From IMG/VR virus record IMGVR_UViG_3300038420_000034: a DNA stretch of 51,875 nt; one strand, 5' to 3'. The stretch is from a virus. Position numbers and translations under genes: made by a program. Shown in pieces: positions 3,714-25,687 of the stretch; position 1 is the stretch's first letter; each line of letters starts with the position of its first letter. The notes beneath the pieces were generated by a model. It did not search any database. It had not been told where the DNA came from and was given only the letters and a program-made list of their open reading frames with translations.

Positions 3714-3716
3714 AGG

Positions 3717-4748: not shown

Positions 4749-4753
4749 GGGTC

Positions 4754-5770: not shown

Positions 5771-5775
5771 GGCCT

Positions 5776-6810: not shown

Positions 6811-6815
6811 AGCCT

Positions 6816-8747: not shown

Positions 8748-11700
8748 CTACGTCAAAAAGTCAACTGCGATCTCGACATAGTTGCTGCTGAGGTTCACAC
8801 CATTTGAGGCAAAGGCCCGCACCACAAACGCCCCCTGGTAACCAGTCGAGGCATAGGCGTCTTGGGCGGTAAAGGCTGCAACCAGGTCATCATTGCTAAG
8901 CAGGTAAGAGTTGACCCCAGGCCTGAGCGTCACGCTCAGCATGGTGGTCTGGCTTCCAAGGACATAGAACTTCAGGACGGTGCTGGTTGCCTGGTCGGCC
9001 TGCATCCAGGTGACCGGGATGCTGTCACCAGAACGATACGTCGGGAATGACGACCCCTTGACAAGCAGGTTCATCGGGGCCAGTGGGACGTTCCCGGCAG
9101 TCACGGTCACGTAGATCGTCCGGGTGTCGGTCTTGCCACCCGTGTCAGTTGCCGTGACCTGTATCTGGAACGTCCCGGCAACCGTGGGGACGCCGCTGAT
9201 GATGTTGCCAACCAACGTCATGCCTGGTGGCACCTGGAGCGCCGTAAATGCCACCGGTGCCGCGCCCATGGCCGTCAAGACGTATGTGAACTGGGCGCCG
9301 AGCACCGCGTTCACGGACAAGGGTGAGGAGATGATGACAGGTGGGATCGTCACGGTCGTTGAGGCCCCAAGGACATCGGTCACCACCACGCTTCCAGTGA
9401 TGATGGCCGAGGCAGGGCCAGGCGTGACGATCACTGGGTTGCCAACACGAGTCGTCGCAACTGGGTTTGTAAAGGTCCACGCATAGGCCATGGCCATCCC
9501 AGCAGGGCTCGTGACCGTCACGCTGATGATCGCTGGCTGCCCGGCGGTGACAGGGCCACTTCCCGACAGTGGCTCAACGTGGAAAAAGTCCACCACAGGG
9601 TCGGAGTCTTGCGCCACGATGATGTCAACAGACCCAGTGCCGGTCTTCCCAATGGTTGTCGTTACCACAACTACCGCCTTCAGCGTGCCAGGAGACTGGC
9701 CGGCCATGTCGACGACCAACACGTTCTGCGCCGCCCCTCCGTTGATCGCCTGGGTTGTGCCTGGCAGGTATTGGTCCGTGGCCCACCCGTTGACCTTCAA
9801 CAGCTGCCAGGAGAAGCTCTCGATGTCATAGCCATCAAGGTCCAACGCGACGGCCGTCAACGTCACCACCGTTGGGATGGTGATGGGAACTGGGGTGCCC
9901 ACCACGGTTGGTGGGATCGTGATGTCGGGTGGGATGGCCGTCACGGCCACCACGACAGGCTGGCTAGTCACCACCCTGAAGCTGACCAGCATTGACGCTG
10001 TGGCCCCATAGTTGTCAACCAATGTCAAGGTCAGGTCTGCAGTCTCGGTGATGGTCAGGTTGAAGGTCACCGTCCCCTGGACATGGCCACTGACAACCGA
10101 CGTGATGACCTGTGGCGTGGCAGACCCGATAGACACGGTGATGGAGCCACCGGGGCTGCTGTCTGGGTCCTTGGCCGTGACTGTCACCACCGTCGAATAG
10201 CCAGGGGCCATGTCATTGTTGCTAACACCCAACGAGAGAACCTGTGGGGCCTGGTTGACCGTCGTGACGACCGTCTGTGAAACTGACCGGCCAAGGTCAT
10301 CGACGGCTGTCACCGTGACCGAGAGTGAGCCACCTGTGTTAGCCACCTTGGCCTGCTGTGCCACCGACGCGTCAGTGACCACAACCGTGCCATCCCAAAA
10401 TGACCAAACTAAAGATGTGGCATTTGAAACTCCTGAGACCTGGTAGACGATCGTGCTCCCTTGGTTGGGCGTAGACCCACCAAATGGCGTAAACGACCCA
10501 CCGATGATCGTCCCAGCTGCCAGGCTAAAGCTGCCTGGCCCAAGTGGGCTCACGGTCAGCACACCACCCGCAAAAAATGACTGGACCGTGCCTGGAGGCA
10601 TGGTAGGAACTGCCACAGGCAGGATGTCCTCACGCCTCCTGACCGTCACGCCCGTCACCGACTCGCTCAAGACTGATGCTGGTGTCCTGATGGCCTGGGT
10701 GACGGCGCCCCATGGCGATGGCCCACTCAGGCCTCCATCTGGCAGTATCCGAGTAGCTGGGTCAGACTCGTGCACCCACTCACTGATTGACCCATCCCAG
10801 TTGACAATGCCAACCCACCCACCAGGGACAGAGTTGGGAAGTGAGTCACCCTCGGCGGTGTCCAGTGGCATCAGCGTGGTTGGTGAGTCAACCCGGTAGA
10901 GTGTCGGCAACACCCTCTCAACCACCACCCCATAGATGGCCAAGGCATAGGAGACATTTTGCTGTGTGGCGTTGAGCTTCCCACCCCACGAGATCTCAAG
11001 CAACCAGCCAGAGCCAACGGCCTCCGAAAGCTCAAAGTCATACGTCACCGTCCCCCTTGGGTTGACTAGCCCGGTCCCTGTGACCACCATTGGAAATGAC
11101 ATCACCTGGCCGATGGTGACCTCGACGTTGAGCCCAGCAAAGTCCTTGGGAACCTGCCCAACATTCCCAGCATCAAGCGTCAGCCTGTAAGGCCCAGCTG
11201 CCAATGCCGCTGGCATGTAAAATGTCAGGCTGCCACGCTGGTCAGTGGCCGGCGTGCTGATGCCAAGGCCAAAGCTATTCGAGTCAACCCAGCTGGAGAG
11301 AAGCGTGGTGCTTGTGGAGGCGCCCAGGTCCACGACGGTGGTTGACGATGTGTAGAGAAACAGGGTCGACCACGGCATGCCCGCACTGACCCCACGCGAG
11401 ATCGTGCCATCCAGGCCAACGGTCAAGAGATACCCGCCCCCATCGACGAGGTGCATTGTCCGGCCACCTGACGCCACCTGCGTGGCCACAAGCACGGCCG
11501 AGTTCGTCCCATCCGAGTTGAGCACGCTGACGGCCTTGATCTCCCACGCGATGGCCCTGTAGAGGATGCGCCAGGTTGAGGATGTCACAGAGCCAGCTAT
11601 GTCAACCACCTGAAATGACGTTGAGCTGACGATGGTAGCGTCAAAGAAGGCCCCGCCAGATGGTGACTCATTCGAAATAAACCTGACCCGATCTCCAACG

Positions 11701-13853
11701 ACCCAGCCTGTCGTGCCAGAGACTCCAGACAGTGAGAGGACCTGCCCAATGGTCAACGAAGACAGGGTGATCGTGTCCGTCGATGCCCCAGTATACTGCT
11801 CAGCCGTCCACACCCGGTGAAAGGCCACGTTGCGGTTGGGCTCCTGAGAGAGCACACCAGCCCACGTGCTGTTCGACCCAACGATCCCATTCTGAGTTGA
11901 GACCACAACCCGGCCATCAACCATCACCGGCCAGCCTTGGCAGCCCAACAGCCATGGGACGGTCGGAACAGACCCACTGTCAAGGCCGACGTCATCTATC
12001 CGTGGGTCACCGATGACGTCGACCTCGTTCATCAGCAGCCTGGTCGACTCACGCTCAAGGAGGTTCGATGCCAAGGCCAGGCCGCTGCCAAGAGAGACCC
12101 GGTCAAGGTAGACAAAGCTACTGTTGCGGTAGGCCTTCATGGCCCACGACACCCCGGCTGGGGTCAGCACCATCGACGGCCACCGGCCCTGTGGGACAGT
12201 CCTCTGAACAGGAGTCCGAAACTCAACCACCGACTTGACTGCCGTCCAGATCCTAAGGTCGCGGATGGTGAATGTCGTGGTGGTCTGCCCACCCACCACG
12301 ATGGTATCTGGGGCGCCCAGGGCAAAGCTGGTAGCGCAGGGACCGGCTGTCCATACTGGCGATGCATCTGGGTCAGTCGACCGCCACAGGCTGACCGAGG
12401 CGATGGTGGACCCATCATAGACAAGCCCAAGAAGGTAGTCGGTTGTCAGGGAGATCGTGGTGCTGGCCTGCACCACCCAAGGGGTCACATACAGCACACC
12501 AGCCGCGGAGAAAGACTGGACCGTGTCCGCCGCAGCTGGCCAGCTTGGGTTGGCTGCCACCGTCGACTCACCCGCCGCCACAGGCAAGACCCTGACCTCG
12601 AGCGTCATGACCCCCGTCCCAACTGCATAGTTGACAACCACCCAAAGTGGCCCAAGGCGAAGCAGGGTGGTCGTGCCATCGGAACCTGAGATGTTTAGCC
12701 GAGGCGAGAACCTAAACATCACCGTGGCCGGGCCATCTGGAAGCTCGTCGTGCATCTGCAGCGTGATGCTCTTCCCACGTGGCACGTAGAGGGCCCAGCC
12801 CCAATCCTTGATCAGCTGCCGGTCAGTGTTGAGAAACTGACTGAGGACACCCTGCCCACCCCACACGGCCTCGTTGACCACCATGGCCGACTCAGGGTGC
12901 TCGTTGAACGGCCACCACTCCCAGAGGTCGGCGTGAAAGTCGTCTGAGAAGAAGCCCTGCGGGTCAGCCACCAGCACGCCATAGACCAGCCCTACCTGGA
13001 CAAAGGTGTAGATGGTATAGCTTGAGTCAAGGTCTGGGGCCAGCCAGTTAGGGGCCACCGTAAACGTAGTCTTGCCCGCCGTAGTAGCTGTGTTGGCTAT
13101 GATCACCCTGACCTGGCCGGAGCCTAAGCCAGAGTTGAGCTTGACCAGCCAGCCAACGTAGGCATTGGCCACCACCCCAGTCAAGGTAGCATCACGAAAG
13201 GTTGACACCCCAGCCACCGTCGCCCCATCATAGACCAGGCTAGTCACGCCTGGCTTTAGGGCAAAGCAGCAGTCACCGAACTCATCAACCTGCCTGAGTG
13301 AAAGCTGGAGCGGCTCGATGCCGGCCTGAGAGCAGACGGCCGACACGAGCCATGGGGTATTGCCCTGGTCAAGGACAGTTGGCCGACGCACGATGACCTT
13401 GGCCTTGGCCAACCCGACAAGCCTGAAACTCTCGGCCAGCCTGGCATCACCAAGGCATGTCAGCGACCGGCTCCAGGGTGACTCGTCGATCAGGCTCCCA
13501 TCGACATACAGGCTGCTGTCGGCCCAGGTCTCACCATAGTAGTCCTGACTAGGTGACTCGATGATGGTCTCTTCAGGGAGGCCAAGGCTCTTTTGGTCCG
13601 ACGGGGCCAAGGTCCTAAGGAGGGCATCCTGGTTGGTCCGGATGACCTTCGTGGAGAGGTCTTGCCAGATGGCGATGATGTCAATCCACGCTGGGACCTC
13701 AGGCGGGACGTTTGCCACCCAGTTCCCCGTGTCCGTGTAGAGGTCGAGGGTGAGCGCGACAATCGAACCTCCTTCGGTGGGAATTTGGCCCGTATAGTGG
13801 ACCAAGTTGTGGTTGGTCGCGTCATACTCGCCCGTGAAGATGATCTCAGCCAT
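8748..13853 (-). CDS. giant virion structural protein (1701 aa), putative tail fibre/adhesin with Ig-like beta-repeat regions
   Basis: 5.1-kb uninterrupted ORF. Extremely T/V/S/G-rich C-terminal half, typical of Ig-like/beta-sandwich repeats. AGGAA SD before the start at 13853. Confidence 0.7.
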   Translation of the reverse strand: MAEIIFTGEYDATNHNLVHYTGQIPTEGGSIVALTLDLYTDTGNWVANVPPEVPAWIDIIAIWQDLSTKVIRTNQDALLRTLAPSDQKSLGLPEETIIESPSQDYYGETWADSSLYVDGSLIDESPWSRSLTCLGDARLAESFRLVGLAKAKVIVRRPTVLDQGNTPWLVSAVCSQAGIEPLQLSLRQVDEFGDCCFALKPGVTSLVYDGATVAGVSTFRDATLTGVVANAYVGWLVKLNSGLGSGQVRVIIANTATTAGKTTFTVAPNWLAPDLDSSYTIYTFVQVGLVYGVLVADPQGFFSDDFHADLWEWWPFNEHPESAMVVNEAVWGGQGVLSQFLNTDRQLIKDWGWALYVPRGKSITLQMHDELPDGPATVMFRFSPRLNISGSDGTTTLLRLGPLWVVVNYAVGTGVMTLEVRVLPVAAGESTVAANPSWPAAADTVQSFSAAGVLYVTPWVVQASTTISLTTDYLLGLVYDGSTIASVSLWRSTDPDASPVWTAGPCATSFALGAPDTIVVGGQTTTTFTIRDLRIWTAVKSVVEFRTPVQRTVPQGRWPSMVLTPAGVSWAMKAYRNSSFVYLDRVSLGSGLALASNLLERESTRLLMNEVDVIGDPRIDDVGLDSGSVPTVPWLLGCQGWPVMVDGRVVVSTQNGIVGSNSTWAGVLSQEPNRNVAFHRVWTAEQYTGASTDTITLSSLTIGQVLSLSGVSGTTGWVVGDRVRFISNESPSGGAFFDATIVSSTSFQVVDIAGSVTSSTWRILYRAIAWEIKAVSVLNSDGTNSAVLVATQVASGGRTMHLVDGGGYLLTVGLDGTISRGVSAGMPWSTLFLYTSSTTVVDLGASTSTTLLSSWVDSNSFGLGISTPATDQRGSLTFYMPAALAAGPYRLTLDAGNVGQVPKDFAGLNVEVTIGQVMSFPMVVTGTGLVNPRGTVTYDFELSEAVGSGWLLEISWGGKLNATQQNVSYALAIYGVVVERVLPTLYRVDSPTTLMPLDTAEGDSLPNSVPGGWVGIVNWDGSISEWVHESDPATRILPDGGLSGPSPWGAVTQAIRTPASVLSESVTGVTVRRREDILPVAVPTMPPGTVQSFFAGGVLTVSPLGPGSFSLAAGTIIGGSFTPFGGSTPNQGSTIVYQVSGVSNATSLVWSFWDGTVVVTDASVAQQAKVANTGGSLSVTVTAVDDLGRSVSQTVVTTVNQAPQVLSLGVSNNDMAPGYSTVVTVTAKDPDSSPGGSITVSIGSATPQVITSVVSGHVQGTVTFNLTITETADLTLTLVDNYGATASMLVSFRVVTSQPVVVAVTAIPPDITIPPTVVGTPVPITIPTVVTLTAVALDLDGYDIESFSWQLLKVNGWATDQYLPGTTQAINGGAAQNVLVVDMAGQSPGTLKAVVVVTTTIGKTGTGSVDIIVAQDSDPVVDFFHVEPLSGSGPVTAGQPAIISVTVTSPAGMAMAYAWTFTNPVATTRVGNPVIVTPGPASAIITGSVVVTDVLGASTTVTIPPVIISSPLSVNAVLGAQFTYVLTAMGAAPVAFTALQVPPGMTLVGNIISGVPTVAGTFQIQVTATDTGGKTDTRTIYVTVTAGNVPLAPMNLLVKGSSFPTYRSGDSIPVTWMQADQATSTVLKFYVLGSQTTMLSVTLRPGVNSYLLSNDDLVAAFTAQDAYASTGYQGAFVVRAFASNGVNLSSNYVEIAVDFLT

Positions 13854-13942: not shown

Positions 13943-15196
13943 TCATTCGGGAAGAGGATTTTCCTCACTCTCAGGGTCGATCATGACCGACGGCTTCTTC
14001 GGCTCCTTGGCTGGGGCCTTTCCAGACAGCTCTTGGATCTTCCGCCACTTCGATGGTGACAGCCTCTGATATGCGTCACCATGGGTCAGTTGAAACTTGA
14101 TCAGGTCAGGCCTGGCCGTGTAGAGGTCCATCAGGAGGTCATCATCCAGGTCGTTGATGCTGAAGTTGTTCCCCTCAAGGTAGCTGTGCTCACCTGTCAA
14201 GCCCTTGATTATCGGCTGCTTGAGCAGCTCCACGATGGCCGGGTGATACTCTTCATCTGGCTTTTTGTTAGCCTTGCCCTTCATCTCCCCAAGATGGCCT
14301 TGTGGAGTAATGATGAACGTCAGCTTCGGCTCAAACAGGCCGATGAACTTGGTCGATGGCGCACGGTAGGAGATGAGACGGTCCTCCGGCCTCGAAGACG
14401 CGCCACCCACGTTTCCGCAGTGACTCATCAACTTGCCCTCGTATGAGTCACCACCAGCGTCAAGGATAACCCACTTTGTGCCATCGGGGAACTGGACGAT
14501 GGGCTTGCCCTCAGGCAGCTTCTCGATGGCCTCGATGGCATCGCCGATGGAGTTCAGGTCACGGTAGACGTCGTCGGTCTTGCGGTCATTGCCTTGGGCA
14601 TCGACATACTTCATGTTCCTCAGCCCGGTGGCCACGGCGATGGCGCCTCGCATTGGCATGAGCTCCGCCACGCGCTGCTCAATCTCACGCCAGCCACAGT
14701 TGCAGTGGGCGTGGGGCGCGTTGGTCGAGGCAGGGCAGTCGGCACCGTGGCCATCGCCTGCCCCCTCACGGCCACGGAGCAAGACACGGAGGACCCGAGG
14801 GTTCAGCTTGGTGACATCCAGGTTGCCAAGCCTGGCCACCTTCTCGTTGAGGGTCTTGTAGACGGCCAAAAACTGGCCGGTGCCCTCACCTCCAGGGGCC
14901 CGTGGGTCAAAGAAGAAGATGGCCTCCTCAACCACCCGGTCCATGGTATAGCCACGGGCCTCAAGCTTCGCCTGGGCCCTCAGCCACTTTGGGTCTGGGT
15001 CACCCTCCTTGTCCATGCTCATCCAGATCCCAGTCCGCTGGATGATGCGGGCCACCCAGAAGCAACCGTCACTTGACTGGATGACCTCCCTTACCTTGGT
15101 GAACAGCTCCCTGACGAGGTTCTTCTCCTCCTCACATAGGTCGGCCCACCACTGGGAGGTCTCAACCAGCTGCAACATCTGTTGTTGCCTACCCAT
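13943..15196 (-). CDS. hypothetical protein (417 aa)
   Basis: AGGAGG SD 7 nt before ATG at 15196. No motif I can name. Confidence 0.6.
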   Translation of the reverse strand: MGRQQQMLQLVETSQWWADLCEEEKNLVRELFTKVREVIQSSDGCFWVARIIQRTGIWMSMDKEGDPDPKWLRAQAKLEARGYTMDRVVEEAIFFFDPRAPGGEGTGQFLAVYKTLNEKVARLGNLDVTKLNPRVLRVLLRGREGAGDGHGADCPASTNAPHAHCNCGWREIEQRVAELMPMRGAIAVATGLRNMKYVDAQGNDRKTDDVYRDLNSIGDAIEAIEKLPEGKPIVQFPDGTKWVILDAGGDSYEGKLMSHCGNVGGASSRPEDRLISYRAPSTKFIGLFEPKLTFIITPQGHLGEMKGKANKKPDEEYHPAIVELLKQPIIKGLTGEHSYLEGNNFSINDLDDDLLMDLYTARPDLIKFQLTHGDAYQRLSPSKWRKIQELSGKAPAKEPKKPSVMIDPESEENPLPE

Positions 15197-15812
15197 GGTG
15201 TAACCTCCTGGCGATCTTCATCTGGTGTCTCAGGACAAGCCTGGCACGCTGGGTTAGGGTCTCGCGGTTGATCGTCTGGCCCTCTGGCGATGGCGCGATC
15301 TGAGGCTCTTGGGCAACGTTGAAGTCGCCCGCCTCAAGCAAGATGTTGACAATGTCTACCGGGTCGTCCACGGCATCAAGAACCTGCCTGGCTGTAAAGG
15401 CCGAGTCGATGATGCCACGACTAGGCGGGCTTGGTGGATCTTCATCGGTCCACCGCATCAGCCCGAACTCGTCTTCGTGCGCCATGACATAACTAGTGGT
15501 GTCAAACTCAGCCCTGGCTGAGAACCGGGTGCCCTTTGGGACGTGGAGCGCTGAGAGGTAGGGCTCCTTGATGACCATGCCACCACTCGGCTCCATGGGG
15601 TCTTCACCCATGTAGTAGAGCTGGCCGTCCTTGAGCCCATAGAGGAAGTAGGTGAACATGTCACGCTCAATGCCGTCGACACGCAGGAAGTCCCACATCT
15701 CCGAGCGGTCTTTACCAATAATCACCATGCCGTCGCCATCGTCAACCACGGGTTCAGACCACTTTGCTCGGATAGACCACTCCCGACCGTCGATGTTTAC
15801 CTTAAGTGGCAT
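15189..15812 (-). CDS. modular-family protein (207 aa; SRGIIDSAF...ARQVLDAV unit)
   Basis: Contains the ...SRGIIDS...ARQVLD... and C-terminal ...QMKIARRL... elements shared with the 15.8-25.7 kb family. Confidence 0.55.
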   Translation of the reverse strand: MPLKVNIDGREWSIRAKWSEPVVDDGDGMVIIGKDRSEMWDFLRVDGIERDMFTYFLYGLKDGQLYYMGEDPMEPSGGMVIKEPYLSALHVPKGTRFSARAEFDTTSYVMAHEDEFGLMRWTDEDPPSPPSRGIIDSAFTARQVLDAVDDPVDIVNILLEAGDFNVAQEPQIAPSPEGQTINRETLTQRARLVLRHQMKIARRLHHG

Positions 15813-16464
15813 GACCGGCCCTCATAGCACTGGAGATCTTGCCACGATTAACCTTGATGATTCGACGCCTTAGCTCGGCATATTCCTCTGGGTCAGCAAG
15901 CACGTAATAGTCATGGCCTCCTCCCTCAACCTTCACGACCTTGTCACCCGGCTTGATATATGAAGAAAACGAGGCCAGTTGATCCGCCATTGAGCGGTAA
16001 ATCCTCTGAGACGTCGAATCGGATGAACTAACATACCGAAAATCATTGACAATGGGCAGAGCATCTTCGGTTTCCACGTTGAACGTCTCGACTCCAACCA
16101 TGCCAATGGGTGGGTTATCAACTGATTTTACCCAAGCCTTAGCCCGTGCTATGGCCTTCATCTTGACGGTTTCTAGCTCCTCGGCAAATTTTACCTTGAT
16201 CGCATCTGACAAGACCGGGTTACCCAATGAAGACATCCCACGATTTAGAGATGTGACAAAAGCAACCTGTTCACTGGACATCGGCATAGACGCCTCAAAA
16301 CTTCTTGACTCGCCTCCAGACAAAAATGCCGTCGTCGTGCACCTAAAAATCTTCTTTGAAAAATCCACCTCGGCATAGAAATCGACCTTGGGCTTTCCAG
16401 GATTTCCGACTATATATCGAGGCATTTCAAGCAGTAAAGAATCGATGATATTTCGTGACTTCAT
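15802..16464 (-). CDS. modular-family protein (220 aa)
   Basis: Starts MKSRNIIDSLLLEMPRYIVGNPGKP. Ends GDKVVKVEGGGHDYYVLADPEEYAELRRRI...SSAMRAG. Both match module ends found in the larger paralogs. Confidence 0.55.
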   Translation of the reverse strand: MKSRNIIDSLLLEMPRYIVGNPGKPKVDFYAEVDFSKKIFRCTTTAFLSGGESRSFEASMPMSSEQVAFVTSLNRGMSSLGNPVLSDAIKVKFAEELETVKMKAIARAKAWVKSVDNPPIGMVGVETFNVETEDALPIVNDFRYVSSSDSTSQRIYRSMADQLASFSSYIKPGDKVVKVEGGGHDYYVLADPEEYAELRRRIIKVNRGKISSAMRAGHAT

Positions 16465-16982
16465 GCAACTCTTTCGCCAACAGGGCCCCTGTGCGTGCGG
16501 CAGATGGATCTTGAGTATAAGCCCCTGTCTTTAGTGGTTGAATCGCAATTGATTATGCCAGAATCTCTAAAATCATGATGAATCGACACGCCATTGAGTC
16601 CAAGCGACTTTATCCTATGACAGTTTGGACACAAACACTGACGATTAGCAGCTGAATTACCACCGCCGTCAGCCACTGGAATAACGTGGTCAATGTCAAA
16701 AAACAATGGATCTTTACAAGATCGTTTACACCGAGCGCACCTCCAACCGACATTAAGAAGTGGAAGTCCACATATCTGGTTAAGCAACTCAATCCTAATT
16801 ACGGTCGAATATCGGATTGTTCGGCCAAGTTTTTTCTGAAAAACGATCCACTTAACCTTTTCCATCCTAACTCCAGAACCCGTATATTCTCTGACAAATT
16901 CTGGACCATAGATTTTCGAATACTTAGCCAACCTAAGCGCTGATTTACGCCTGAACTCGATAATATATTTTTGAGTCTTCAT
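16461..16982 (-). CDS. HNH endonuclease (free-standing homing-endonuclease-like)
   Basis: CARCKRSC...DIDHVIPVADGGGNSAANRQCLCPNCHRIK = HNH motif with the Zn-binding C pairs. ATGA-type 4-nt overlaps at both ends. Confidence 0.8.
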   Translation of the reverse strand: MKTQKYIIEFRRKSALRLAKYSKIYGPEFVREYTGSGVRMEKVKWIVFQKKLGRTIRYSTVIRIELLNQICGLPLLNVGWRCARCKRSCKDPLFFDIDHVIPVADGGGNSAANRQCLCPNCHRIKSLGLNGVSIHHDFRDSGIINCDSTTKDRGLYSRSICRTHRGPVGERVA

Positions 16983-18025
16983 CGAGTCAGAGAATCAATA
17001 ACGGCCCGGCTCTCAGGAAGCTGCTCGTCCTCACCACTGGTATCAAAATCCCACGGAAGTTCATGGACCTCATGCTCTCCTTCACCGGGTTGAAGATCGT
17101 GGTGAAGGTCCATCATCCACTTAATTGAATGACGTGGCCTTTCGATAGCATGTGAAGCACTACTGTGGTGCAACGCGGGTGTTGGCACCCCATGCTCAAA
17201 CACGTAAAGCCGTTCCTGGTTGAATTTCGTGATCTTGCACTCCGCGCTAGTGTAGCACTGCCTCACCTGTGATAGGTGAGAGCCCGCATCGAGACAGCTT
17301 CTGACAACCTTGGAAAAGCTGTTGTTGGAGGCGTCAACCTCCTCTTGCGTGGCCCTGATGCCAAACATGGCTGCCTCACCAACCTCACTGATGAACATGC
17401 CGCTGACCAACCCGGTCAGCTTGTGCCGCTTCGCATAGGCATCAGCATTGCACCAGATGAAGAGCCCCTCTTTCTGGCTAAGCGCTGGGCCGAACTTATC
17501 GCCGATCAAAAAACCGGCCCCGAACAGGCCCGTTGGGCAACCGTGGCCAAGCATGTAGACCCGTGGAAATTGCTTGATGGTGGCCAACAGCTCATCCTCA
17601 CCAATGCGGCCGGAGATGACAGGATAACCGTGGCCTTCGTAGATTGGCCTTAGAAAGTCAGTCGAGCGGTCGTCAAGGTGGATGACCAGAGTGTCAGGCT
17701 GTCGCAAAAACTTGCGGCGACTTGCCTCATCGACAACGACTCTGGCCTTTGAAGCTTGACGCATGACTGAATACGTATGAGCCCGCATCGATGCTTGGAC
17801 CTCAGCAGTCTTGGGATAGTAGGCGTGGGCGTATCCTTTCTGAGAGAAGTTGGAGTGCTTTACTGAAGATGGCCCTTTATACACCTGACCGTGTTCGTGC
17901 ATGGCCTTCAAGGCCTCTTCCATGCCATTGACATACGGCCTGAAATTGATCGATGACAGACCATGGCCACAACCAAGTTTTCCATTGGCCTCAAGATATG
18001 TGGCTATTGCCCGGTCGAGTGTCAT
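16979..18025 (-). CDS. hypothetical protein (348 aa) ending in the family motif ...ESRAVIDSLTR
   Basis: Long clean ORF. C-terminus carries the xSRxVIDSL element that begins the gene immediately downstream of the HNH insertion. Confidence 0.6.
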   Translation of the reverse strand: MTLDRAIATYLEANGKLGCGHGLSSINFRPYVNGMEEALKAMHEHGQVYKGPSSVKHSNFSQKGYAHAYYPKTAEVQASMRAHTYSVMRQASKARVVVDEASRRKFLRQPDTLVIHLDDRSTDFLRPIYEGHGYPVISGRIGEDELLATIKQFPRVYMLGHGCPTGLFGAGFLIGDKFGPALSQKEGLFIWCNADAYAKRHKLTGLVSGMFISEVGEAAMFGIRATQEEVDASNNSFSKVVRSCLDAGSHLSQVRQCYTSAECKITKFNQERLYVFEHGVPTPALHHSSASHAIERPRHSIKWMMDLHHDLQPGEGEHEVHELPWDFDTSGEDEQLPESRAVIDSLTR

Positions 18026-18058
18026 AACACAGAGTCAATGACAGTCTTCACTCTCGGT

Positions 18059-20011
18059 TCATCCATTTTTCCAAGCATCAGGGTCGACGCCAAACTCACC
18101 CTCGCCACCCTCAGGCTCTGGCCCTGGTTCTTGCTCTCTGAACGTCCCGTGACTCTCGCGCTCTTCATTCTCCATGTCAGCCTTCAGCTCTGCTGCCATC
18201 TGCTTGATCAACTTCTGGGCCTCAGGGCCACCCGCTTGGATGGTCTTCATCGTGGCGTTGAACTCATCTTTGGGAAGCTGGATAAGCTTGCTGTAGAGGT
18301 GGGCCGTGATCTCGTCCTCATCCTGGCCGATGGCCGCTACAAACCGCTGCCAAAGCCCGCGGCCCATGATCGGATACGCGGGACTGACAGACCAGTTTGC
18401 CAAGTCAGCCTTGTCAATGACCTCCTTGGCCTTCGATGGGTCAGACGGCAGGCCCTCATAGGAGATCAGCTCCAACAGGCCCTTAGTCAACTCCTGCACC
18501 AGCATCGGAAAGATCATTGCCCTGACCTTGATAACCGGGACCTTGTTCTCGTCCGGCTCAAAGTCTAACTCAGCTGACCCTCCTGCGGCCTCAGGAGTTT
18601 GAGCGGCCATCGATACTTGACTGTCGCCCATGGCAAAATAACCGATCTCGGTCCCGGCCATGGCCATGCCATAAAGCGTGGGCAGGTTGGGGTTGATCTT
18701 GGCGAACCTCTTGTTGAACAGCTGGTAGGCGTAGTTCTTCGAGACCGCCCCACCAGCAATCATCGCATTGATGATCCGACGTTTCATCACCTCGGGGTCG
18801 AAGCCCTTAAACTCCTCAGCAGCCTTGACCTCTTCGGCCTCTCCTGGGCCTTCGGCCTCCGGCTCTTCACCTTCTGGCTCTTCACCTTCTTCGCCAGGTT
18901 CTTCCTCAGGCTCTTCATCGCCACCGATGCGGATGTTCTCAAGCTCGCCGCTGACACCGAGCTTGGCATCAATCTGAAATTCTCCCGCCTCGTATGGCTC
19001 TTTGAACTTCTTGAACTCCGGCTGTTCAAAGATCAGCTCAATGGCAAGCTTCTCCAATGCTCGACGATAGGGTCTTTCCATCTCCATCGCATCACGGATG
19101 GCCACCATCATAGCCTGGTAGATTGACCCGATGTTAAGCTTAGCCTCTTCACCATGGATCCTGTTCAGAAACGTGACCAACCTCTGAAGCGTGTCCTTAT
19201 ATTGGCCCGACTCCGGATAACCGCCAAGGTCCATGGGCATCTCCATCAGAACCTTATCAATTGCTTTTCGCGCGCTCATGCTTTCTCGTTTCGTTTTCTT
19301 CAGCCGCTGCTGTAACAACTGGCGGAGCCACTCACGTTCAAGCGGTCGCATGTCAAATGGAGTCCCGTCCGAGTGAAGCCACTCAAGCTTAACCGTCCTC
19401 CAATCAACGTGACACTGGGTCCCGGCTATCCTGATCAACTCACCATGCACACTGTAAGCCAGGTCTGGAATACCAGCGTGCAATCCAGGGTCAGCGTGGC
19501 CAGTTATCCAATTTCGAAAATCTGTCAAACTAGTCAGCGAAATTCCAGAGGCCGACTTTGTCACTGAGATGGGCTTTCCACTGGCCATAGCCGTGACCCT
19601 GACATGGAGGTCATCTGTGCCAGACTCACCCAGCCTCTGCCGAAGCACGTCCTTAATCCGATCACGCTCAAGAACCCGCATGTCCCATGGGCTGCCATCG
19701 GCATGGACCCACTGAACACTCCAATAGGCTGACACGATCCTATATTGCGCATCTTTGAACGCCTCAGACTCGTGGTCTTCCAACTTAGGGAACATCTTTG
19801 TCAACTTGTCAATAAACTTACCCGCCGCTATCCCGTCCATCAGGTCATGTTCCTTCCTGATGTTATACACACTGGAATAGTTGACGGGCCAGTCTCGAAC
19901 CTCGGGATATGTCAAGTTGCCAGTCGGCACGGTAACCGTAAGCTTAATGGGCAAGGCCGGTTGTGCCGGGCTTGCAATCGTGGCGCTGGCCTTGGCAAAG
20001 AGGTCTTTCAC
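18059..20011 (-). CDS. modular-family large protein (650 aa) with acidic E/P-rich tract
   Basis: Two xHxDG[ST]P[WF]DMR.LER units. SARKAIDKVLMEMP unit. GGDEEPEEEPGEEGEEPEGEEPEAEGPGEAEE low-complexity tract. N-terminus MKDLFAKA... is paralogous to the 646-aa neighbour. Confidence 0.65.
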   Translation of the reverse strand: MKDLFAKASATIASPAQPALPIKLTVTVPTGNLTYPEVRDWPVNYSSVYNIRKEHDLMDGIAAGKFIDKLTKMFPKLEDHESEAFKDAQYRIVSAYWSVQWVHADGSPWDMRVLERDRIKDVLRQRLGESGTDDLHVRVTAMASGKPISVTKSASGISLTSLTDFRNWITGHADPGLHAGIPDLAYSVHGELIRIAGTQCHVDWRTVKLEWLHSDGTPFDMRPLEREWLRQLLQQRLKKTKRESMSARKAIDKVLMEMPMDLGGYPESGQYKDTLQRLVTFLNRIHGEEAKLNIGSIYQAMMVAIRDAMEMERPYRRALEKLAIELIFEQPEFKKFKEPYEAGEFQIDAKLGVSGELENIRIGGDEEPEEEPGEEGEEPEGEEPEAEGPGEAEEVKAAEEFKGFDPEVMKRRIINAMIAGGAVSKNYAYQLFNKRFAKINPNLPTLYGMAMAGTEIGYFAMGDSQVSMAAQTPEAAGGSAELDFEPDENKVPVIKVRAMIFPMLVQELTKGLLELISYEGLPSDPSKAKEVIDKADLANWSVSPAYPIMGRGLWQRFVAAIGQDEDEITAHLYSKLIQLPKDEFNATMKTIQAGGPEAQKLIKQMAAELKADMENEERESHGTFREQEPGPEPEGGEGEFGVDPDAWKNG

Positions 20012-21948
20012 GACTCGTATTCCCTCTCTCCCCTCATGGCCTTTGACAGCTTCTGACGAGTTGACAGTGTAATCTGACGCTGAAATGCCTGCTCCTCATC
20101 TGGGTTAAGCAAGAGATAGTAGGTCCAAGGGTGGTCTTCACCCCTGACCTTGATAACCCTGTCACCAGGTCTGTGGGCCTTGTTGATCAACGCGGCCATC
20201 ACATCAGCCGAGGTATGGTTGGCACGAGTTCTGACAAACCTGAAATCCTTGATCCACTGGAGTGACGGGCCACTGAGCCTGACCTCCTCAGGGCGCCTGA
20301 CCCGGATGGTCTGTGGCCGGTTCTTATCGTTCTTGTCAATCCAGGCCTTGGCCCTCTGCCCAAACTTGAACTCAACATCGTCAAGCTTGCCAGAGGCCTT
20401 TAACTCCTTTTCTAACTCATTGGCAATCTTGCACCTATCCACGTGGGCCTGCACCGCATGCCATCTTACGGCCATCTCCGGTGGCAGTGGCTCAGAATAC
20501 AACAGCCAACGTCGAGCCCCATTTCCAGCCATGATGGTGCCATTGCAGCTAATCTCTGGGGTTATCGAGTTGACATAAGCATGACCGCCTTTGACAACCC
20601 CAGAAGACTTGCCATACTTTGGTTTTCCAATGTGATACTCTGGAGACTCCACCAGCCTGTCAATGACCTGCCGTGCCTCGCCGATCCCGCGTCTCATAGC
20701 CTGCCTGACCTTCCTGCGTTCGTATGGCCTGACATCGTAGGGTGTGCCGTCCTTGTGAACCCACCTGAGAAACTTCACACTCCTGAACTCAGGCATGTCA
20801 GCCCGCAAAATATCATTGATGAGCTGAGCATCTTCAGGATCGGGGATGGTTAACACCGAACTCCCATAAGAAGACAACGGCCAACCATCCGTAACATGAT
20901 AGGGTGGGCCAAAGCTGAAACATGACCCAACATGAAAGTTAAGCCAGCCAATGACACCATCCCACTCCACATCATGCGGGATATCGATACGAACAGTAAA
21001 GGCCACCTCGTGTGTCTGATGTCCCGGATATACTCGGCCTATCTCCCACGAACGTTTGAACTGCTTAGCCTTGTGAGGGTTCATCCTCAGGATGACCTCA
21101 CACTCCGCATATAGGTCAGGCGGCCCAAGGACACCTTTAGGGTCAAGCTCGTCCTCGCCAATGTTTATCCACTTAGTCGTCATGACATCCTTAAGCCGCT
21201 GACACTCAAGTGGTCGAACATCGTATGGCTCTCCACCAAACTTGATCCACTCAAACTTGGCCCTATCCTTGTGATACTTGAGAACATCCGCCATGTAAAC
21301 CACCACACGATGAATAGCGGGCCTAGTCAAGACAGGGTAGGTCCGCTTGACGTAGTCAACCAAAGCCCCAATCAGTGGGTTGAATATCCGGCTGTCTATG
21401 TAATACTCCTGGGGCCACCGCAATCGCCCGGTCAACCAATCTTTAAGAGTGTCCCACAAGACACCCTTCGTCGAAACAGTGGCCTTCGCCACCAACTCCA
21501 CCCCAGTGCATGAGTTTGGGATGTTGATGGTCACCCTCATGTAGAGGCCTTCAACCTCATCGATGACCTGCCTTGCCAATGACTCAGCCGTGGCATCGAT
21601 GCCACGGGCCATCGCCTGACCTACACGTTCACGCTCGAGTGGCCGGATGTCGTATGGAGAGCCGTCAGAGTGAAGATACTCAAATTTAGCCTGTTCCCAG
21701 TTTATCCGATGAGCATCTTTGAAGCCCGCTTGATTATTAAACTGGCTTCTAACCGAGTTGTAAACTTCAAAATCCATCATCTCGATGGCAGGCCTCTGGG
21801 AACCTGAAAAATTCTTGGACCAACTCCGAACATCGTCCCACGACACCTTCTCTGGAACTTGAACTATGTGAGAAGCCTTGTCAAGACCTGCCAGGCCTGC
21901 CTGGTCGTAGACCACAGGAACCGTGACCTTGACAAAGAAGTCCTTCAT
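20008..21948 (-). CDS. modular-family large protein (646 aa)
   Basis: Three DG(S/T/E)PYD(I/V)RP(L/Y)E units. Two ARQVID units. C-terminal YYLLLNPDEEQAF...SKAMRGE module. Confidence 0.65.
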   Translation of the reverse strand: MKDFFVKVTVPVVYDQAGLAGLDKASHIVQVPEKVSWDDVRSWSKNFSGSQRPAIEMMDFEVYNSVRSQFNNQAGFKDAHRINWEQAKFEYLHSDGSPYDIRPLERERVGQAMARGIDATAESLARQVIDEVEGLYMRVTINIPNSCTGVELVAKATVSTKGVLWDTLKDWLTGRLRWPQEYYIDSRIFNPLIGALVDYVKRTYPVLTRPAIHRVVVYMADVLKYHKDRAKFEWIKFGGEPYDVRPLECQRLKDVMTTKWINIGEDELDPKGVLGPPDLYAECEVILRMNPHKAKQFKRSWEIGRVYPGHQTHEVAFTVRIDIPHDVEWDGVIGWLNFHVGSCFSFGPPYHVTDGWPLSSYGSSVLTIPDPEDAQLINDILRADMPEFRSVKFLRWVHKDGTPYDVRPYERRKVRQAMRRGIGEARQVIDRLVESPEYHIGKPKYGKSSGVVKGGHAYVNSITPEISCNGTIMAGNGARRWLLYSEPLPPEMAVRWHAVQAHVDRCKIANELEKELKASGKLDDVEFKFGQRAKAWIDKNDKNRPQTIRVRRPEEVRLSGPSLQWIKDFRFVRTRANHTSADVMAALINKAHRPGDRVIKVRGEDHPWTYYLLLNPDEEQAFQRQITLSTRQKLSKAMRGEREYES

Positions 21949-21957
21949 CGCCCATGG

Positions 21958-22236
21958 CTAAAAGCCCGAGATGCCGGCTATAGGACCTTTTGCCAACTCG
22001 GTGGCCTTTGCCTTGGGTCTCGGGCGAACGCCCGGCCTAGGTGTGAACTTCCACGGCCGGACGCCAGGACGCCTCACCGGATCAGGTGGTCTCTGAGGCC
22101 TGGTTGGCGTTCGAACCGGCGTTGGGGTAATGACCGGGACTGGCCCGGAGCGCCCAAAACCAATGTTCCGGTCGAAGCATGGAACTCCGGCTACCCCGGT
22201 GAACTCGTCGATGACCTGTCGTGCTTTGCTGCTCAT
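21958..22236 (-). CDS. small modular-family protein (92 aa) starting MSSKARQVIDEF
   Basis: N-terminal ARQVID unit followed by a P/R-rich tail. Fits the gap between neighbours. Confidence 0.4.
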   Translation of the reverse strand: MSSKARQVIDEFTGVAGVPCFDRNIGFGRSGPVPVITPTPVRTPTRPQRPPDPVRRPGVRPWKFTPRPGVRPRPKAKATELAKGPIAGISGF

Positions 22237-22238
22237 AA

Positions 22239-23348
22239 TTAACCTTCCGCAAAAATTGGGTTTCCAGGAGTCAGTCCAGCCTTTGGCCTTGGGCTGACAG
22301 TCTCTTTAGGGTTGAACCGCCGCCGATATCCAGCCTCAAATGGAGAACCTTTAACTGCTTGCCAGAGCTTGGGGTGGTGCCGGTTGTAACGCAGCGCATA
22401 CTCATACGCCGTAAATGGCTGCCGCAAGACCTGGTCCAGCTCAACAACAGCGTTATTGGAAAAGGCGTAGGCCGGCTTCGGATCATGCTCTATCTCGGCA
22501 TCAATAATTTGTCGCGCATTCATGCCTAGCCTAAGTAGTCCTGATTCACCCACCACCCGACCGTGGATAACCTTCGGCCTACCGGCTGAGATACGCTTTT
22601 GCATGACCCGCTTGAGGTGGTCAGCCTGGAGCGGCCGAACATCATAGGGCGTGCCGTCCTTGTGAACATAGTCAACAACACCTACCACCCCGATCCCAGG
22701 GTGAGGCTTGTGAGAGGCCTCAACCTTGGCCTTGAACTCTGGGTGTTGGTCGGCAATCTCACTGTTCCACCACTGTTTCGGGCCTTCACTCGTATACCTG
22801 GCCCGCATATACCCACCAATCATCTCAAATGGGACATGGTCTGGAACTGGCACGGTGACATCGAGCTCATTAAAGTCACTGTGGTCAAACTCGGCCCACG
22901 CTTCTTTCCCACGGGTATAGATGCGAAGCTTGACGATGGCATGCAGGCCTGGGTGAGGGTGGCTAACCTGTCTTGGTTCACCCATGTTTTCACCCAAGGC
23001 CTGGTCAATGACGCCACGGCTCTTGCTGGCCTTGGCCACGACCATCCTCAGGCACCGCCTAGCCACGTCCTCAGCATCCAGTGGTGCCTCAAAGTAGTCA
23101 GTCAACTCGACCTTGTCAACCTCCATGTCAAGGTTGGTGCTCTCCCCGTCAAACTCAGCCTTGCGGATCTCTCTTGCCTCCTTGGGATATACCTGCTCAA
23201 ACTGCTCCCACACCCGGTCTACCTTGTCATTCCACCAGGGGACCTTCACCGTCAACACGACATTTCGCCAGGCCTCACCTCGAGTCCCATGGGCCGCATA
23301 GTCTCCCACGCGGACCCTGATCTTAGCGTGAAGGTCGGGGTGGTTCAT
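22239..23348 (-). CDS. modular-family protein (369 aa)
   Basis: YVHKDGTPYDVRPLQADHLKRVMQKR. KSRGVIDQALGENMGEP. MNARQIIDAEIEHDP. Confidence 0.6.
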   Translation of the reverse strand: MNHPDLHAKIRVRVGDYAAHGTRGEAWRNVVLTVKVPWWNDKVDRVWEQFEQVYPKEAREIRKAEFDGESTNLDMEVDKVELTDYFEAPLDAEDVARRCLRMVVAKASKSRGVIDQALGENMGEPRQVSHPHPGLHAIVKLRIYTRGKEAWAEFDHSDFNELDVTVPVPDHVPFEMIGGYMRARYTSEGPKQWWNSEIADQHPEFKAKVEASHKPHPGIGVVGVVDYVHKDGTPYDVRPLQADHLKRVMQKRISAGRPKVIHGRVVGESGLLRLGMNARQIIDAEIEHDPKPAYAFSNNAVVELDQVLRQPFTAYEYALRYNRHHPKLWQAVKGSPFEAGYRRRFNPKETVSPRPKAGLTPGNPIFAEG

Positions 23349-25687
23349 GCGATCTTGGCCTCGACCCCACGCCTCATGGCCCCGGTAACCAACGCCCGAT
23401 TTGCGTCAAGCACACGACTCTTGAACAGGGCCTTCTCCTTCTGGTTCATCAAGACATAGTATTCAAAGCGGACGCCACCCTTCGAGGACTCAGGGCCAAG
23501 GAGCCTCACCAACTCATCCTCAGGCTGCTTCAGCTGGGCAAATGCGATGGCATCTGCCACCGACCTTGTAGAAGACCTGGCGTGACGAATGTAGCGAAAG
23601 CCTTGGATAAGCGGCTTGATGTCGAACTTTACAAACACCCGCTTGATGCCCTTCATCTTCACGAACTGTTGGCCGGCCTTCTCTTGGTCTATCCAACGCC
23701 AAGCATCATTGGCCGCTCTCCTCGCCAGCCTCTTATACATCTCCGAACTGTCGATGGAGTTCATGACCTTCTTCCTGAACTCCTCATCATGCCGATACCA
23801 GTCATGTGGGTGGGCTGCCTTGGCCTCCTGCCACTCCCTGCGTATCTCAGGCGAGAATGGCTCGGTGGCGACAAACTGCCTGTTGGTCCCATCTGGCAAG
23901 ATGGCGTAGACCTTGACGCTAAACCCAGTCCCACTGTAGACGTCACAGTTGACCGAGTATCGCTCCTCCGGGACGACCTTTGGTCCCGATGGCCTTCCAG
24001 TGGTATACTGTGGCATCTCAACCAACAGCTCCTCACCTAGTGGAGGCTGCTCGGCCGTCTCACCTTGCGGGAAGTCTAGGCCTTGCAGCTTCTGGCTTCG
24101 CTTATCTGCGGCTGCCTCCACGTTCTTCCTGACAACCTCCCGCATGATGTCCTCCCACTGCCTCTTGGTGCAGAGGACGTAATACAGCCCGCAGAGCATG
24201 CCCAGCCACTTCATCCTGACCTGGTGAAGCTCCTCATCCGACTGCTTGGTTGACACCAAGGCCAGCAGGTTCTCAAAGTTGTTGTAGGCCTCAGAGCTGG
24301 TCCACTTGACATCCTTGAACAGCTCGGGGGCGCTGTGGTATGAGACGTTGACGATCTGCAGCGGGTCGGCCCTGAACGTATTGACCTTGTTCCTGCTGGC
24401 CCACTCCCTGGCCGACGAGCTAAAGTCTCCCGTGTAATAGTAGGGTGACTCAGCCAAGCTATCAATGACCCCACGAGACCGACTCATGGCCTTCGACACC
24501 TGTCTCTTCCCAATAAGTTGGATGGCTTGCATTAACCTTACCTTCTCCTCTGGGTTTACAAGCACGTAAAATCCATGTTCATCATGCTGTGCTTGCACGT
24601 TGAGCATCTCATCTTCAGGCCTGCGCAACAATGAAAATGCCACAAGCTGCTCTGGCCTTGACCAGTTTGGCGTAAATCGATAGGGTTCAACCAACTTTCT
24701 CATGACCTCTTGACTGCCATCAATAACCGATCCAGCCGGAACAGTTACCTGCTTGACCTGCGCCAGTGGAACTACCGATTGCCCTGGCTCCATGTTTGGT
24801 CCTGGATAATCGACTCTTCCAGTCAGGTCTTGCCTGAGCACGTGGATCGGCATCTCACTGATAAGCTGAGAGTCAATCACCGACCTGGCCTCACCGACCT
24901 TGCCCATAAGGAGACTCCACGCGGTGTCATGCGCCTTTCGATACTCAGGGTGCCTGAAGCCACCAAACCCATGTTCCCTACCCCAGACGTATGGCGGCTG
25001 CCGCCTCTTGTAGCCAAGCACCTGTGACTTGGTGTAGCGGACACCTGGAAAGTAGTCTAGGTCGTCCTTGTGGATGGTGGGGTCGATGATGGTGCCATCG
25101 GCCGCCTCGATCCAGCCATGCTCAACCGCCACGCCATTTGACTTTAGCCTGGCGAACCCCTCGACATAGAGGTAGTCACCATCGACCTTGCTGATGCGGC
25201 GCAAGACCTTGACGCAGTTAAGCCAGCACTGCTTTGGCGAGGCGCCGAACTTGTCGCCCCACTTCCTCGATAGCTCCATGTCCTTGGCCTCATTCCTAGC
25301 GGCCGCACCCCGCTTCATAGCCGCGTCCACACAGGCTCTTTCCAGTGGCCCGATATCATACCTTGAGCTATCTTCATGGACCCACTCAACACTGCTAAGC
25401 CTGATGTCATCCACAGATTTTTCCTGGCCTTGCAGCAGGCCTTGCGTCTGCAAAAGCTTCATGTTAACGGCTGTATCCGTGGAGTCAAGAAAATCCCAAG
25501 CAAACCTCCAAGCCAGTGTCCTGCCGAAACCTGGTCGCTGGATATTTCGAATGTTCTCCCGCTCAAGCTGACCCTTTGTCTTCTGGCAGTGAAAGCACCC
25601 GACCACTGGCACATAGCCAGGGAAGTCACTCGGGTCAAGCAGCTCAAACTTTCCACCACAGGCCGGACATTTTCCAAGGTCACTCAT
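23345..25687 (-). CDS. modular-family large protein (780 aa) with N-terminal Cys4 zinc ribbon
   Basis: MSDLGKCPACGG...CFHCQ. WVHEDSSRYDIGPLERACVDAAMKRG. GEARSVIDSQLISEMP. RSRGVIDSLAESPYYYTGD. Two ...Y(Y/V)LxNxxEK...AM(S/R)RG modules. Confidence 0.65.
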   Translation of the reverse strand: MSDLGKCPACGGKFELLDPSDFPGYVPVVGCFHCQKTKGQLERENIRNIQRPGFGRTLAWRFAWDFLDSTDTAVNMKLLQTQGLLQGQEKSVDDIRLSSVEWVHEDSSRYDIGPLERACVDAAMKRGAAARNEAKDMELSRKWGDKFGASPKQCWLNCVKVLRRISKVDGDYLYVEGFARLKSNGVAVEHGWIEAADGTIIDPTIHKDDLDYFPGVRYTKSQVLGYKRRQPPYVWGREHGFGGFRHPEYRKAHDTAWSLLMGKVGEARSVIDSQLISEMPIHVLRQDLTGRVDYPGPNMEPGQSVVPLAQVKQVTVPAGSVIDGSQEVMRKLVEPYRFTPNWSRPEQLVAFSLLRRPEDEMLNVQAQHDEHGFYVLVNPEEKVRLMQAIQLIGKRQVSKAMSRSRGVIDSLAESPYYYTGDFSSSAREWASRNKVNTFRADPLQIVNVSYHSAPELFKDVKWTSSEAYNNFENLLALVSTKQSDEELHQVRMKWLGMLCGLYYVLCTKRQWEDIMREVVRKNVEAAADKRSQKLQGLDFPQGETAEQPPLGEELLVEMPQYTTGRPSGPKVVPEERYSVNCDVYSGTGFSVKVYAILPDGTNRQFVATEPFSPEIRREWQEAKAAHPHDWYRHDEEFRKKVMNSIDSSEMYKRLARRAANDAWRWIDQEKAGQQFVKMKGIKRVFVKFDIKPLIQGFRYIRHARSSTRSVADAIAFAQLKQPEDELVRLLGPESSKGGVRFEYYVLMNQKEKALFKSRVLDANRALVTGAMRRGVEAKIA

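Follow-up and report, generated by a model that had tools for sequence, protein, structure and literature searches.

A free-standing HNH endonuclease gene, probably selfish, at a junction of motif-delimited module genes in a peat-soil giant phage

Introduction

The window in this work is the whole analysed stretch of 51,875 nucleotides (nt) recorded as IMGVR_UViG_3300038420_000034, an entire 51.9-kb JGI contig whose source is an uncultured peat-soil giant phage. It contains a gene for an HNH endonuclease of 173 amino acids (aa) at 16461-16982 on the minus strand, which is a free-standing open reading frame (ORF) between a 348-aa gene (16979-18025, minus strand) and a 220-aa gene (15802-16464, minus strand). 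The HNH gene overlaps both neighbours by 4 nt, as the original prediction had stated, and both junctions (348/HNH at 16979-16982 and HNH/220 at 16461-16464) are ATGA start/stop overlaps. The three genes occupy three different reading frames. The 348-aa protein ends with ...LPESRAVIDSLTR before its stop codon (...ESRAVIDSLTR) and the 220-aa protein starts with MKSRNIIDSLLLEMPRY (MKSRNIIDSL...), and both ends carry the same motif, xSRxVIDSL. The original prediction had taken this pair of motif copies as the footprint of a homing endonuclease gene that was inserted at a conserved unit boundary and split an ancestral longer gene, or as the DNA that the enzyme targets. The locus raises the question of whether the motif pair was left by the HNH gene or was there before it.

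Nature of the HNH gene and of the flanking motif

The HNH ORF is probably an ordinary selfish free-standing homing-type endonuclease gene that has recently spread, is decaying, and is located at a junction inside a motif-delimited modular cluster. As judged from the compared sequences, the xSRxVIDSL motif is the generic protein-level module-boundary tag of the cluster and is not an insertion footprint. A short motif that is repeated at gene ends can mimic the footprint of a mobile element while being a family-wide module tag. The locus also points to a so far uncharacterised family of modular genes in giant soil phages that is delimited by the motif, and to an unannotated family of predicted caspase-fold proteins.

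The boundary motif across the module cluster

Both flanking genes belong to a modular paralog cluster (15189-25687, minus strand) whose modules are delimited by the motif. In the order of transcription, the cluster consists of the 780-aa gene (23345-25687), the 369-aa gene (22239-23348), the 92-aa gene (21958-22236), the 646-aa gene (20008-21948), the 650-aa gene (18059-20011), the 348-aa gene, the 220-aa gene, and the 207-aa gene (15189-15812), all on the minus strand. BLASTP among the window ORFs shows that the 646-, 650-, 369-, and 780-aa proteins have repeated N-terminal modules in common. In the same comparison, the 220-aa protein is homologous to the C-terminal domains of two larger paralogs (646 aa, residues 424-640; 780 aa, residues 552-774) and also matches a 156-aa protein at 51389-51859. 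The predicted structure of the 220-aa protein has a predicted local distance difference test (pLDDT) score of 88.8, and the fold search with this model gave no informative match. The syntenic module cluster is also present in L002, L011, and L012, the last of which is a 230-kb contig.

Across the nine adjacent modular genes of the cluster (3489 aa), there are 13 matches to the pattern [SAG][RK].[VIL][IVL]D. Shuffled cluster proteins gave a mean of 0.2 and a maximum of 2 matches (2000 shuffles), and the remaining window ORFs (12,052 aa) contain only 2 matches. The motif had been said to occur internally in paralogs of the flanking genes, and this is the case. It is found between modules in the 780-, 646-, 369-, and 650-aa proteins, as two tandem internal copies in the 207-aa protein, and as two copies in the 348-aa protein, where one copy is internal after the N-domain and the other is C-terminal. 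The 92-aa and 220-aa proteins have the motif at the N-terminus. Nearly all modules, fused or separately encoded, have it before or after them, and it is found in N-terminal, C-terminal, and internal positions in the window, L002, L011, and L012.

The full linker consensus is ...[SA]RxVIDxL(L)xE(M/S)PxY.... The C-terminal copy of the 348-aa gene is SRAVIDSL (16988-17011, minus strand), which is followed by TR and the stop codon. The N-terminal leader or linker of the 220-aa protein is SRNIIDSL followed by LLEMPRY (16414-16458, minus strand), where the domain proper starts from EMPxY/F. The profile of the 220-like domain has 35 homologs, about 20 of which stand alone as proteins of 200-290 aa. 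Among 14 aligned free-standing homologs, five start at MPQF/MPIF/TMPQH, which corresponds to the EMPxY part, and six have a recognisable leader that is clearest as M.AK.(L/I)ID.LL.E in P0128, P0138, and P0146. As some of these homologs start with the leader and others at the EMPxY part, the IDxL part acts as an optional leader.

Identity and composition of the HNH gene

Residues 82-125 of the HNH protein match Pfam HNH (E=1.5e-10) and HNH_5 (E=6e-7), and the protein matches 20 PHROG HNH families. The catalytic and zinc-binding set is intact in the sequence (C82/C85, D98-H99, N113, C118/C121, and H122; CxxC...DH...N...CxxCH). The gene is its own ORF between cluster genes and is located outside any intron or intein. 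The word-index protein search with the HNH protein returned only the protein itself as a homolog, tblastn against phages returned only HNH-core matches of less than 47% identity, and the NCBIfam search returned only a sub-threshold HNH match to IscB.

The HNH gene has a GC content of 0.429 and a GC content at third codon positions (GC3) of 0.397, the lowest among the 58 window ORFs (median GC 0.562). The 220-aa gene is the second lowest of them (GC 0.474, GC3 0.507). The final 286 nt of the 348-aa gene are of normal composition (GC 0.524, GC3 0.632), and so are the 220-like modules of the HNH-free L010, L011, and L012 (GC ~0.54, GC3 ~0.67). Since the HNH and 220-aa genes are both lowest in GC while the 220-like modules of HNH-free relatives are normal, the compositions suggest that both genes were imported together.

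The HNH gene is also polymorphic in its presence. It is absent from the syntenic loci of L010, L011, and L012, and it is partially deleted in L002, L003, and L005. The foreign composition, the deletions in relatives, and the absence from distant syntenic relatives agree with the earlier view that the gene has a mobile, homing-type look and is located at a conserved unit boundary. A role of the HNH gene in packaging was rejected, as there is no terminase gene nearby and the HNH gene is dispensable.

Decay and recombination among close relatives

The close relatives (L002-L006 and L015) come from peat metagenomes. L006 and L015 are window-like and both carry the HNH gene. L002-L005 represent a second genome type that is 75-90% identical to the window over 17269-18048. 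L006 is a recombinant that is L002-like upstream of ~17869 and window-like downstream.

Comparison of L002, L003, and L005 shows that the interval 16237-16853 (minus strand) was struck by three independent natural deletions. The L003 deletion (~16504-16761, 259 nt; L003 position 3613) removes HNH codons ~75-160. The L002 deletion (~16261-16853, 595 nt; L002 position 7793) begins at HNH codon ~44 and reaches codon ~70 of the 220-aa gene, and the L005 deletion (~16237-16817, 582 nt; L005 position 1827) begins at HNH codon ~56 and reaches codon ~76 of the 220-aa gene. Each deletion removes the HNH catalytic core, and the junction microhomology is 1-2 nt. The 348/HNH junction is identical in all three despite the deletions. 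With intact copies and three different deletions, one peat-soil phage population represents a natural time series of homing-endonuclease decay. Two of these deletions and a gene fusion in L010 (described below) end at most ~45 nt apart, at codons ~70-85 of the 220-aa gene, and the C-terminal subdomain is kept.

The column-wise comparison of the window with the L002/L003/L005 type identified an identical tract (2 mismatches) at 15830-17268 (minus strand), which takes in the final 286 nt of the 348-aa gene together with the HNH gene and the whole 220-aa gene. Upstream of this tract, over 17269-18048, there are 4-27 mismatches per 60 nt, and the genomes differ by 8-45% per 60 nt just upstream. 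A divergent patch at 15650-15828, at the start of the 207-aa gene, has 20 mismatches in 180 nt against L002/L003 in otherwise identical surroundings. Free-standing endonucleases of T4 are intergenic and spread with co-conversion of their flanks (PMC2988022). The identical tract and the composition fit a recombinational import of the HNH gene with the downstream 220-aa allele, like intronless homing with co-conversion (PMC2988022), and are suggestive of such an event.

A 107-aa gene, which is a paralog of the 348-aa N-domain, is intact in L002-L006, where it ends with SKSRIVIDSML and has an ATGA overlap with the 348-aa gene. In the window, only a dead remnant of 41 nt of this gene is found (18022-18062, minus strand). 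The remnant has the first 10 nt and the last ~25 nt left, ends with ...TVIDSVL before the stop codon, and keeps the ATGA overlap with the 348-aa gene. Recombination in the peat phage population is, on the evidence of these alignments, frequent.

Fused and separate genes in distant HNH-free relatives

The original prediction had proposed to check whether the flanking genes are fused in relatives without the HNH gene, and such relatives give a mixed picture, with fused genes in L011 and L010 and separate genes in L012. L011 has one 543-aa ORF in the syntenic position between the 650-like and 417-like genes. Its residues 7-98 match the 348-aa N-domain (E=2.5e-8), and the 220-aa protein finds its best match in residues 332-540 (E=2.6e-33). 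L010 (~80% nucleotide identity) has an in-frame fusion of the predicted caspase-fold core of the 348-aa protein with the C-half of the 220-like domain. Missing from the L010 fusion are the tail of the 348-aa protein, the two motif copies, and ~85 codons at the start of the 220-aa gene, and the deletion amounts to ~136 codons. L010 was rejected as a true empty site, as it is a derived in-frame deletion without both motif copies.

L012 has the same downstream genes (418-aa and 1789-aa) and keeps separate genes at the locus. These are a 114-aa N-domain gene that ends with ...QIVIDSLYK, an unrelated 172-aa gene that ends with ...AGRFID, and a 212-aa 220-like gene that starts with MTFGAKALIDSLLYEMPRH. 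The 172/212 boundary (...AGRFID, stop codon, MTFGAKALIDSLLYEMPRH) is an HNH-free motif junction. The 646-like gene of L012 (4128-5839) is divided at the first linker, which gives a 159-aa gene (...SKSVIDDVFRRYR before the stop codon) and a 411-aa gene (MKWPFLAMTAREIIDEV...). This 159/411 junction has an ATGA overlap and motif copies on both sides with no endonuclease between them, and its sequence CGATGAAG is the same 8 nt as in the 348/HNH junction. L012 also has a second, unrelated endonuclease gene at 3669-4244 (minus strand), which is located on the opposite strand between two other module genes of the cluster, matches the PHROG 3322/1035/3118 endonuclease/HNH families (E down to 8e-20), and has a GC content of 0.444.

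Because the 107/348, L012 159/411, and L012 172/212 junctions exist without an endonuclease, junctions with a motif, a stop codon, and a start codon that may be followed by another motif copy represent a normal state of the cluster. The relatives share this architecture in their HNH-free junctions, which in spirit is the outcome that the original prediction had named as its refutation. An ancestral longer multi-module gene is plausible from these sequences, since HNH-free relatives show both fused and separate states. This part of the earlier claim stands with the L011 543-aa ORF and the L010 fusion. Its other part, the HNH gene as the cause of the split, is unsupported given the HNH-free junctions and the reading frames, and no finding shows such causation.

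The flanking motif copies as DNA

The two motif copies that flank the HNH gene share 12 of 27 nt, use different Ser codons (AGC vs TCA), and are no closer to each other than random pairs of motif copies. Pairwise, all 14 motif-coding copies have 7-21 of 27 nt in common, with a core of about ATYGAY. A target-site duplication was rejected on the 12 of 27 nt, and a conserved DNA target within the motif on the 7-21 of 27 nt. The motif is conserved as protein and not as DNA, which speaks against both a target-site duplication and a conserved recognition site. Together with the HNH-free junctions, this sets aside the reading of the motif pair as a footprint of the HNH gene. When the 518 nt that separate the two ATGAAG starts are excised, the result is a pair of ATGA-coupled genes in different frames and not a single restored ORF.

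A possible scar of another kind was found by local alignment at the gene starts. The first 30 nt of the HNH ORF (16953-16982, minus strand) and the first 26 nt of the 220-aa gene (16439-16464, minus strand) form an imperfect direct repeat with 23 identities in 26 positions and 3 gaps. Its score of 13 is the best of 57 ORF starts, of which the next scores 8, and 13 is reached by 5 of 5000 shuffles. This resemblance suggests an insertion of the element at the 5' end of a 220-type gene, or inside that end, when the gene was already separate, with a duplication of the gene start.

The 348-aa protein and possible roles of the motif

The 348-aa gene has four parts, namely an N-domain (residues 1-~93), the internal motif ARVVVD (17729-17746), a core (residues ~110-290), and an acidic tail with the C-terminal motif. 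According to its predicted structure, the core is an unannotated His/Cys protein of the caspase-hemoglobinase fold (caspase/gingipain/CHAT/separase type). G160-H161-G162 and W191-C192 are invariant in 56 sequences. GHG follows the strand 155-159 and WC follows the strand 186-190, which places a His-Cys dyad after consecutive beta-strands. Searches of Pfam, PHROG, and NCBIfam with the 348-aa protein returned no curated family (Peptidase_C14, C13, C11, C25, CHAT), the PDB sequence search with the family profile returned no match, and the BFVD fold search of the model was uninformative. The core is similar to clan CD (caspases, gingipains, separase, CHAT, and legumain) in the predicted fold and the invariant His (GHG) and Cys (WC), and it differs from clan CD in belonging to no Pfam, NCBIfam, or PHROG family.

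Phage homologs of the core start with lineage-specific leaders, M.RAR.I[IL]EAE or [IV].QEAD.LLP, and distant homologs of ~200 aa begin directly at MKTLVIH. L007 and L008 have a homolog of the core a few genes from the Peptidase_S77 and Gp23 head genes. In P0051-P0063, which belong to another phage lineage, the caspase-fold core is found within multi-module proteins of 400-600 aa whose modules are parted by [IV].[QRK]EAD.LLP, and the core is then followed by G[RV][VI][IL]D[STA]LG.

By analogy with the capsid-targeting sequence (CTS) leaders of T4, we infer that the motif may be a capsid-targeting and/or proteolytic-processing signal for packaged proteins. In T4, CTS leaders direct proteins of diverse kinds into the head, and the cleavage by gp21 follows L/I-x-E (PMC9026906, PMC3012670). 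Paralog families of head proteins in giant phages are also processed at short motifs (PMC5694885). The otherwise unrelated proteins of the cluster have a short conserved leader in common, in which they are similar to the T4 internal proteins with CTS and the processed head paralogs of phiKZ/SPN3US, where a short leader is also found on diverse proteins of plastic paralog clusters. The similarity extends to a hydrophobic-x-acidic pattern, which is [VI][IV]D here and [IL][IL]E or [IV]xQE in related lineages, and to the homologs beside S77 protease/gp23 genes. The window motif, [VI][IV]D, departs from the L/I-x-E cleavage consensus, whereas the leaders of homologs in other lineages have I[IL]E. 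Unlike the T4 CTS, the cluster motif is also internal and C-terminal, and its P1 residue would be Asp. A function of the motif in targeting or processing, if it has one, could account for the way in which these phages shuffle and package cargo proteins of many kinds.

There is also a slim chance that the boundary motif is the recognition or cleavage site of the cluster's own predicted caspase-fold protease. In that case the cluster would amount to a polyprotein system of the phage with packaged effectors, where fission and fusion at the linkers are neutral and endonucleases exploit the junctions. Clan-CD enzymes have strict P1 specificity. This reading is drawn from the motif copies on either side of the core, an arrangement that would suit a self-excising protease domain such as MARTX CPD in self-processing polyproteins, and from a strict P1 that could fit the invariant Arg or Asp. 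L011 and L012 keep the motif at the locus without the protease. If this reading is true, selfish endonuclease genes would exploit neutral cleavable-linker junctions and drive module shuffling.

Preferred explanation and its alternatives

The explanation that we favour is that the HNH gene occupies the start/stop junction of two translationally coupled module genes in a hyperplastic, polyprotein-like cluster. The genes of this cluster would repeatedly undergo fission, fusion, and deletion at linkers without an endonuclease, and a linker junction would be a place that tolerates an extra ORF. The entry point of the HNH gene would have been the start of a 220-type gene that was already separate, at its first ~26 nt or within them, which would have left the imperfect repeat, and the HNH gene would have spread by recombination along with the downstream 220-aa allele.

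Several observations weigh against this explanation and the associated role of the motif. Two of the three distant HNH-free relatives (L010 and L011) hold the 220-like module and 348-homologous parts in one ORF, and the ancestor may therefore have been fused at this very position. The repeat between the HNH and 220-aa gene starts requires three gaps and was noticed post hoc. The identical tract has no clean right-hand boundary, as the identity beyond the 180-nt divergent patch is again ~100%, and the co-conversion is for this reason only suggestive. No HNH-free allele was found among the close (>85% identical) relatives. The exact-pattern scan of JGI metagenomes for the 348/HNH junction returned one window-like contig with the HNH start and L002, and no empty site. 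The pre-insertion state (...GACTCGATGAAGTCACGAAAT...) is therefore a reconstruction and not an observed allele. As for the motif, it has Asp where T4-type protease sites have Glu, and in T4, Asp at the Glu position blocks processing and not targeting (PMC9026906). There are no head genes in the 51.9-kb window, and S77 and Gp23 were seen only beside distant homologs.

The 348-aa and 220-aa genes might instead once have been one ORF (N-domain, caspase-fold core, linker, and 220-like module) whose linker was split by the arrival of the HNH gene, e.g., by homing with co-conversion. Both halves would stay functional because the linker separates autonomous modules. Such a split is in line with the 646- and 780-aa paralogs, in which the 220-like module is always C-terminal and follows the motif, with the syntenic L011 ORF that joins a 348-type N-domain to the best 220-aa homolog, and with the L010 ORF that contains both the caspase-fold core and the 220 C-half. 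The motif four residues from the stop codon also resembles a relic of an internal linker, and mobE is a precedent that divided nrdA of phage Aeh1 into two genes (PMC3045599). We nevertheless consider this split unlikely. Identical junctions of motif, stop codon, ATGA, and start occur without an endonuclease, the flanking copies are unrelated as DNA, and excision of the insert restores no single frame from three genes in three frames. The L010 fusion, which lacks ~136 codons and the two motif copies, is derived by deletion and does not represent an empty site. Free-standing proteins make up most of the 220-like homologs. The 220-aa allele shares the foreign composition of the HNH gene, which speaks for an import and against the former 3' part of the resident gene.

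Recognition of VIDSL-coding DNA by the HNH enzyme, which would draw it to module boundaries and could let it move among them, is very unlikely. The insertion between two motif-coding stretches, the resemblance of the HNH ORF start to the leader-coding start of the 220-aa gene, and the second, unrelated endonuclease gene at another module boundary in L012 would fit such targeting. The 14 motif-coding copies offer no conserved DNA target, though, and a nuclease with such a degenerate site would cut its own genome ~14 times. The window has a single occupied boundary. Free-standing endonucleases known from phages also usually cut hundreds to thousands of base pairs from their own gene (PMC2988022). 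The HNH protein might also be a domesticated component of the cluster, e.g., a packaged or injected nuclease whose N-terminus, MKTQKYIIEF, is an I-x-E-type leader. This N-terminus resembles the neighbouring 220-aa leader, and the gene is translationally coupled to cluster genes on both sides. We also take MKTQKYIIEF to resemble the CTS of T4 IPIII. Domestication is hardly credible for a gene that was lost through three independent deletions in wild genomes, is not found in L010, L011, and L012, has the lowest GC in the window, and is without a homolog in relatives.

A selfish gene at a tolerant linker junction, as favoured here, is similar to the free-standing HNH/GIY-YIG genes of the T4-like mob/seg type (intronless homing), which are small ORFs between undisrupted conserved genes with sporadic distribution, foreign composition, and decay after spread, and whose flanks travel with the gene, as they may do here (PMC2988022). 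It differs from them in having no sequence relative beyond the HNH core and in its location at an ATGA overlap inside a modular paralog cluster instead of a nucleotide-metabolism locus. The locus is also similar to mobE/nrdA of Aeh1, where an HNH gene is located exactly between two ORFs that match parts of one gene in some relatives and short terminal tails flank the insertion (PMC3045599). The Aeh1 split interrupts one enzyme and its tails arose with the insertion, whereas the tails here are a pre-existing motif at ~14 boundaries. The halves here, unlike those of Aeh1, are autonomous modules, and the same kind of splits occurs without an endonuclease.

Surroundings of the locus

The blastn search of 15000-22500 against 50,697 phage records gave no match. 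Scans of viral contigs with the 220-aa and 417-aa proteins found none, and the scan with the 348-aa protein found one distant locus. The word-index protein search with the 220-aa query returned only a truncated call of the 220-aa protein itself. Promoter and terminator scans and the repeat search around the locus remained at chance level.

Downstream of the 207-aa gene are the 417-aa gene (13943-15196, minus strand) and then a 1701-aa fibre-like protein gene (8748-13853, minus strand). Further downstream, at 2700-7874 (minus strand), there are five tandem paralogous genes of ~340 aa that are 38-68% identical and have no family match. The window also has genes for a thymidylate kinase (371-1051), an adenylosuccinate-synthetase-like protein (36016-37056), a DUF4419 protein (39145-40419), and a Dam-type N6-adenine methyltransferase (45026-46099). 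These genes and the presence of the relative L012 on a 230-kb contig fit a large phage genome. An 877-aa protein encoded at 33031-35664 (plus strand) has a major vault protein shoulder (E=9e-19) and a vault repeat (E=1.6e-9), which is unusual in a phage.

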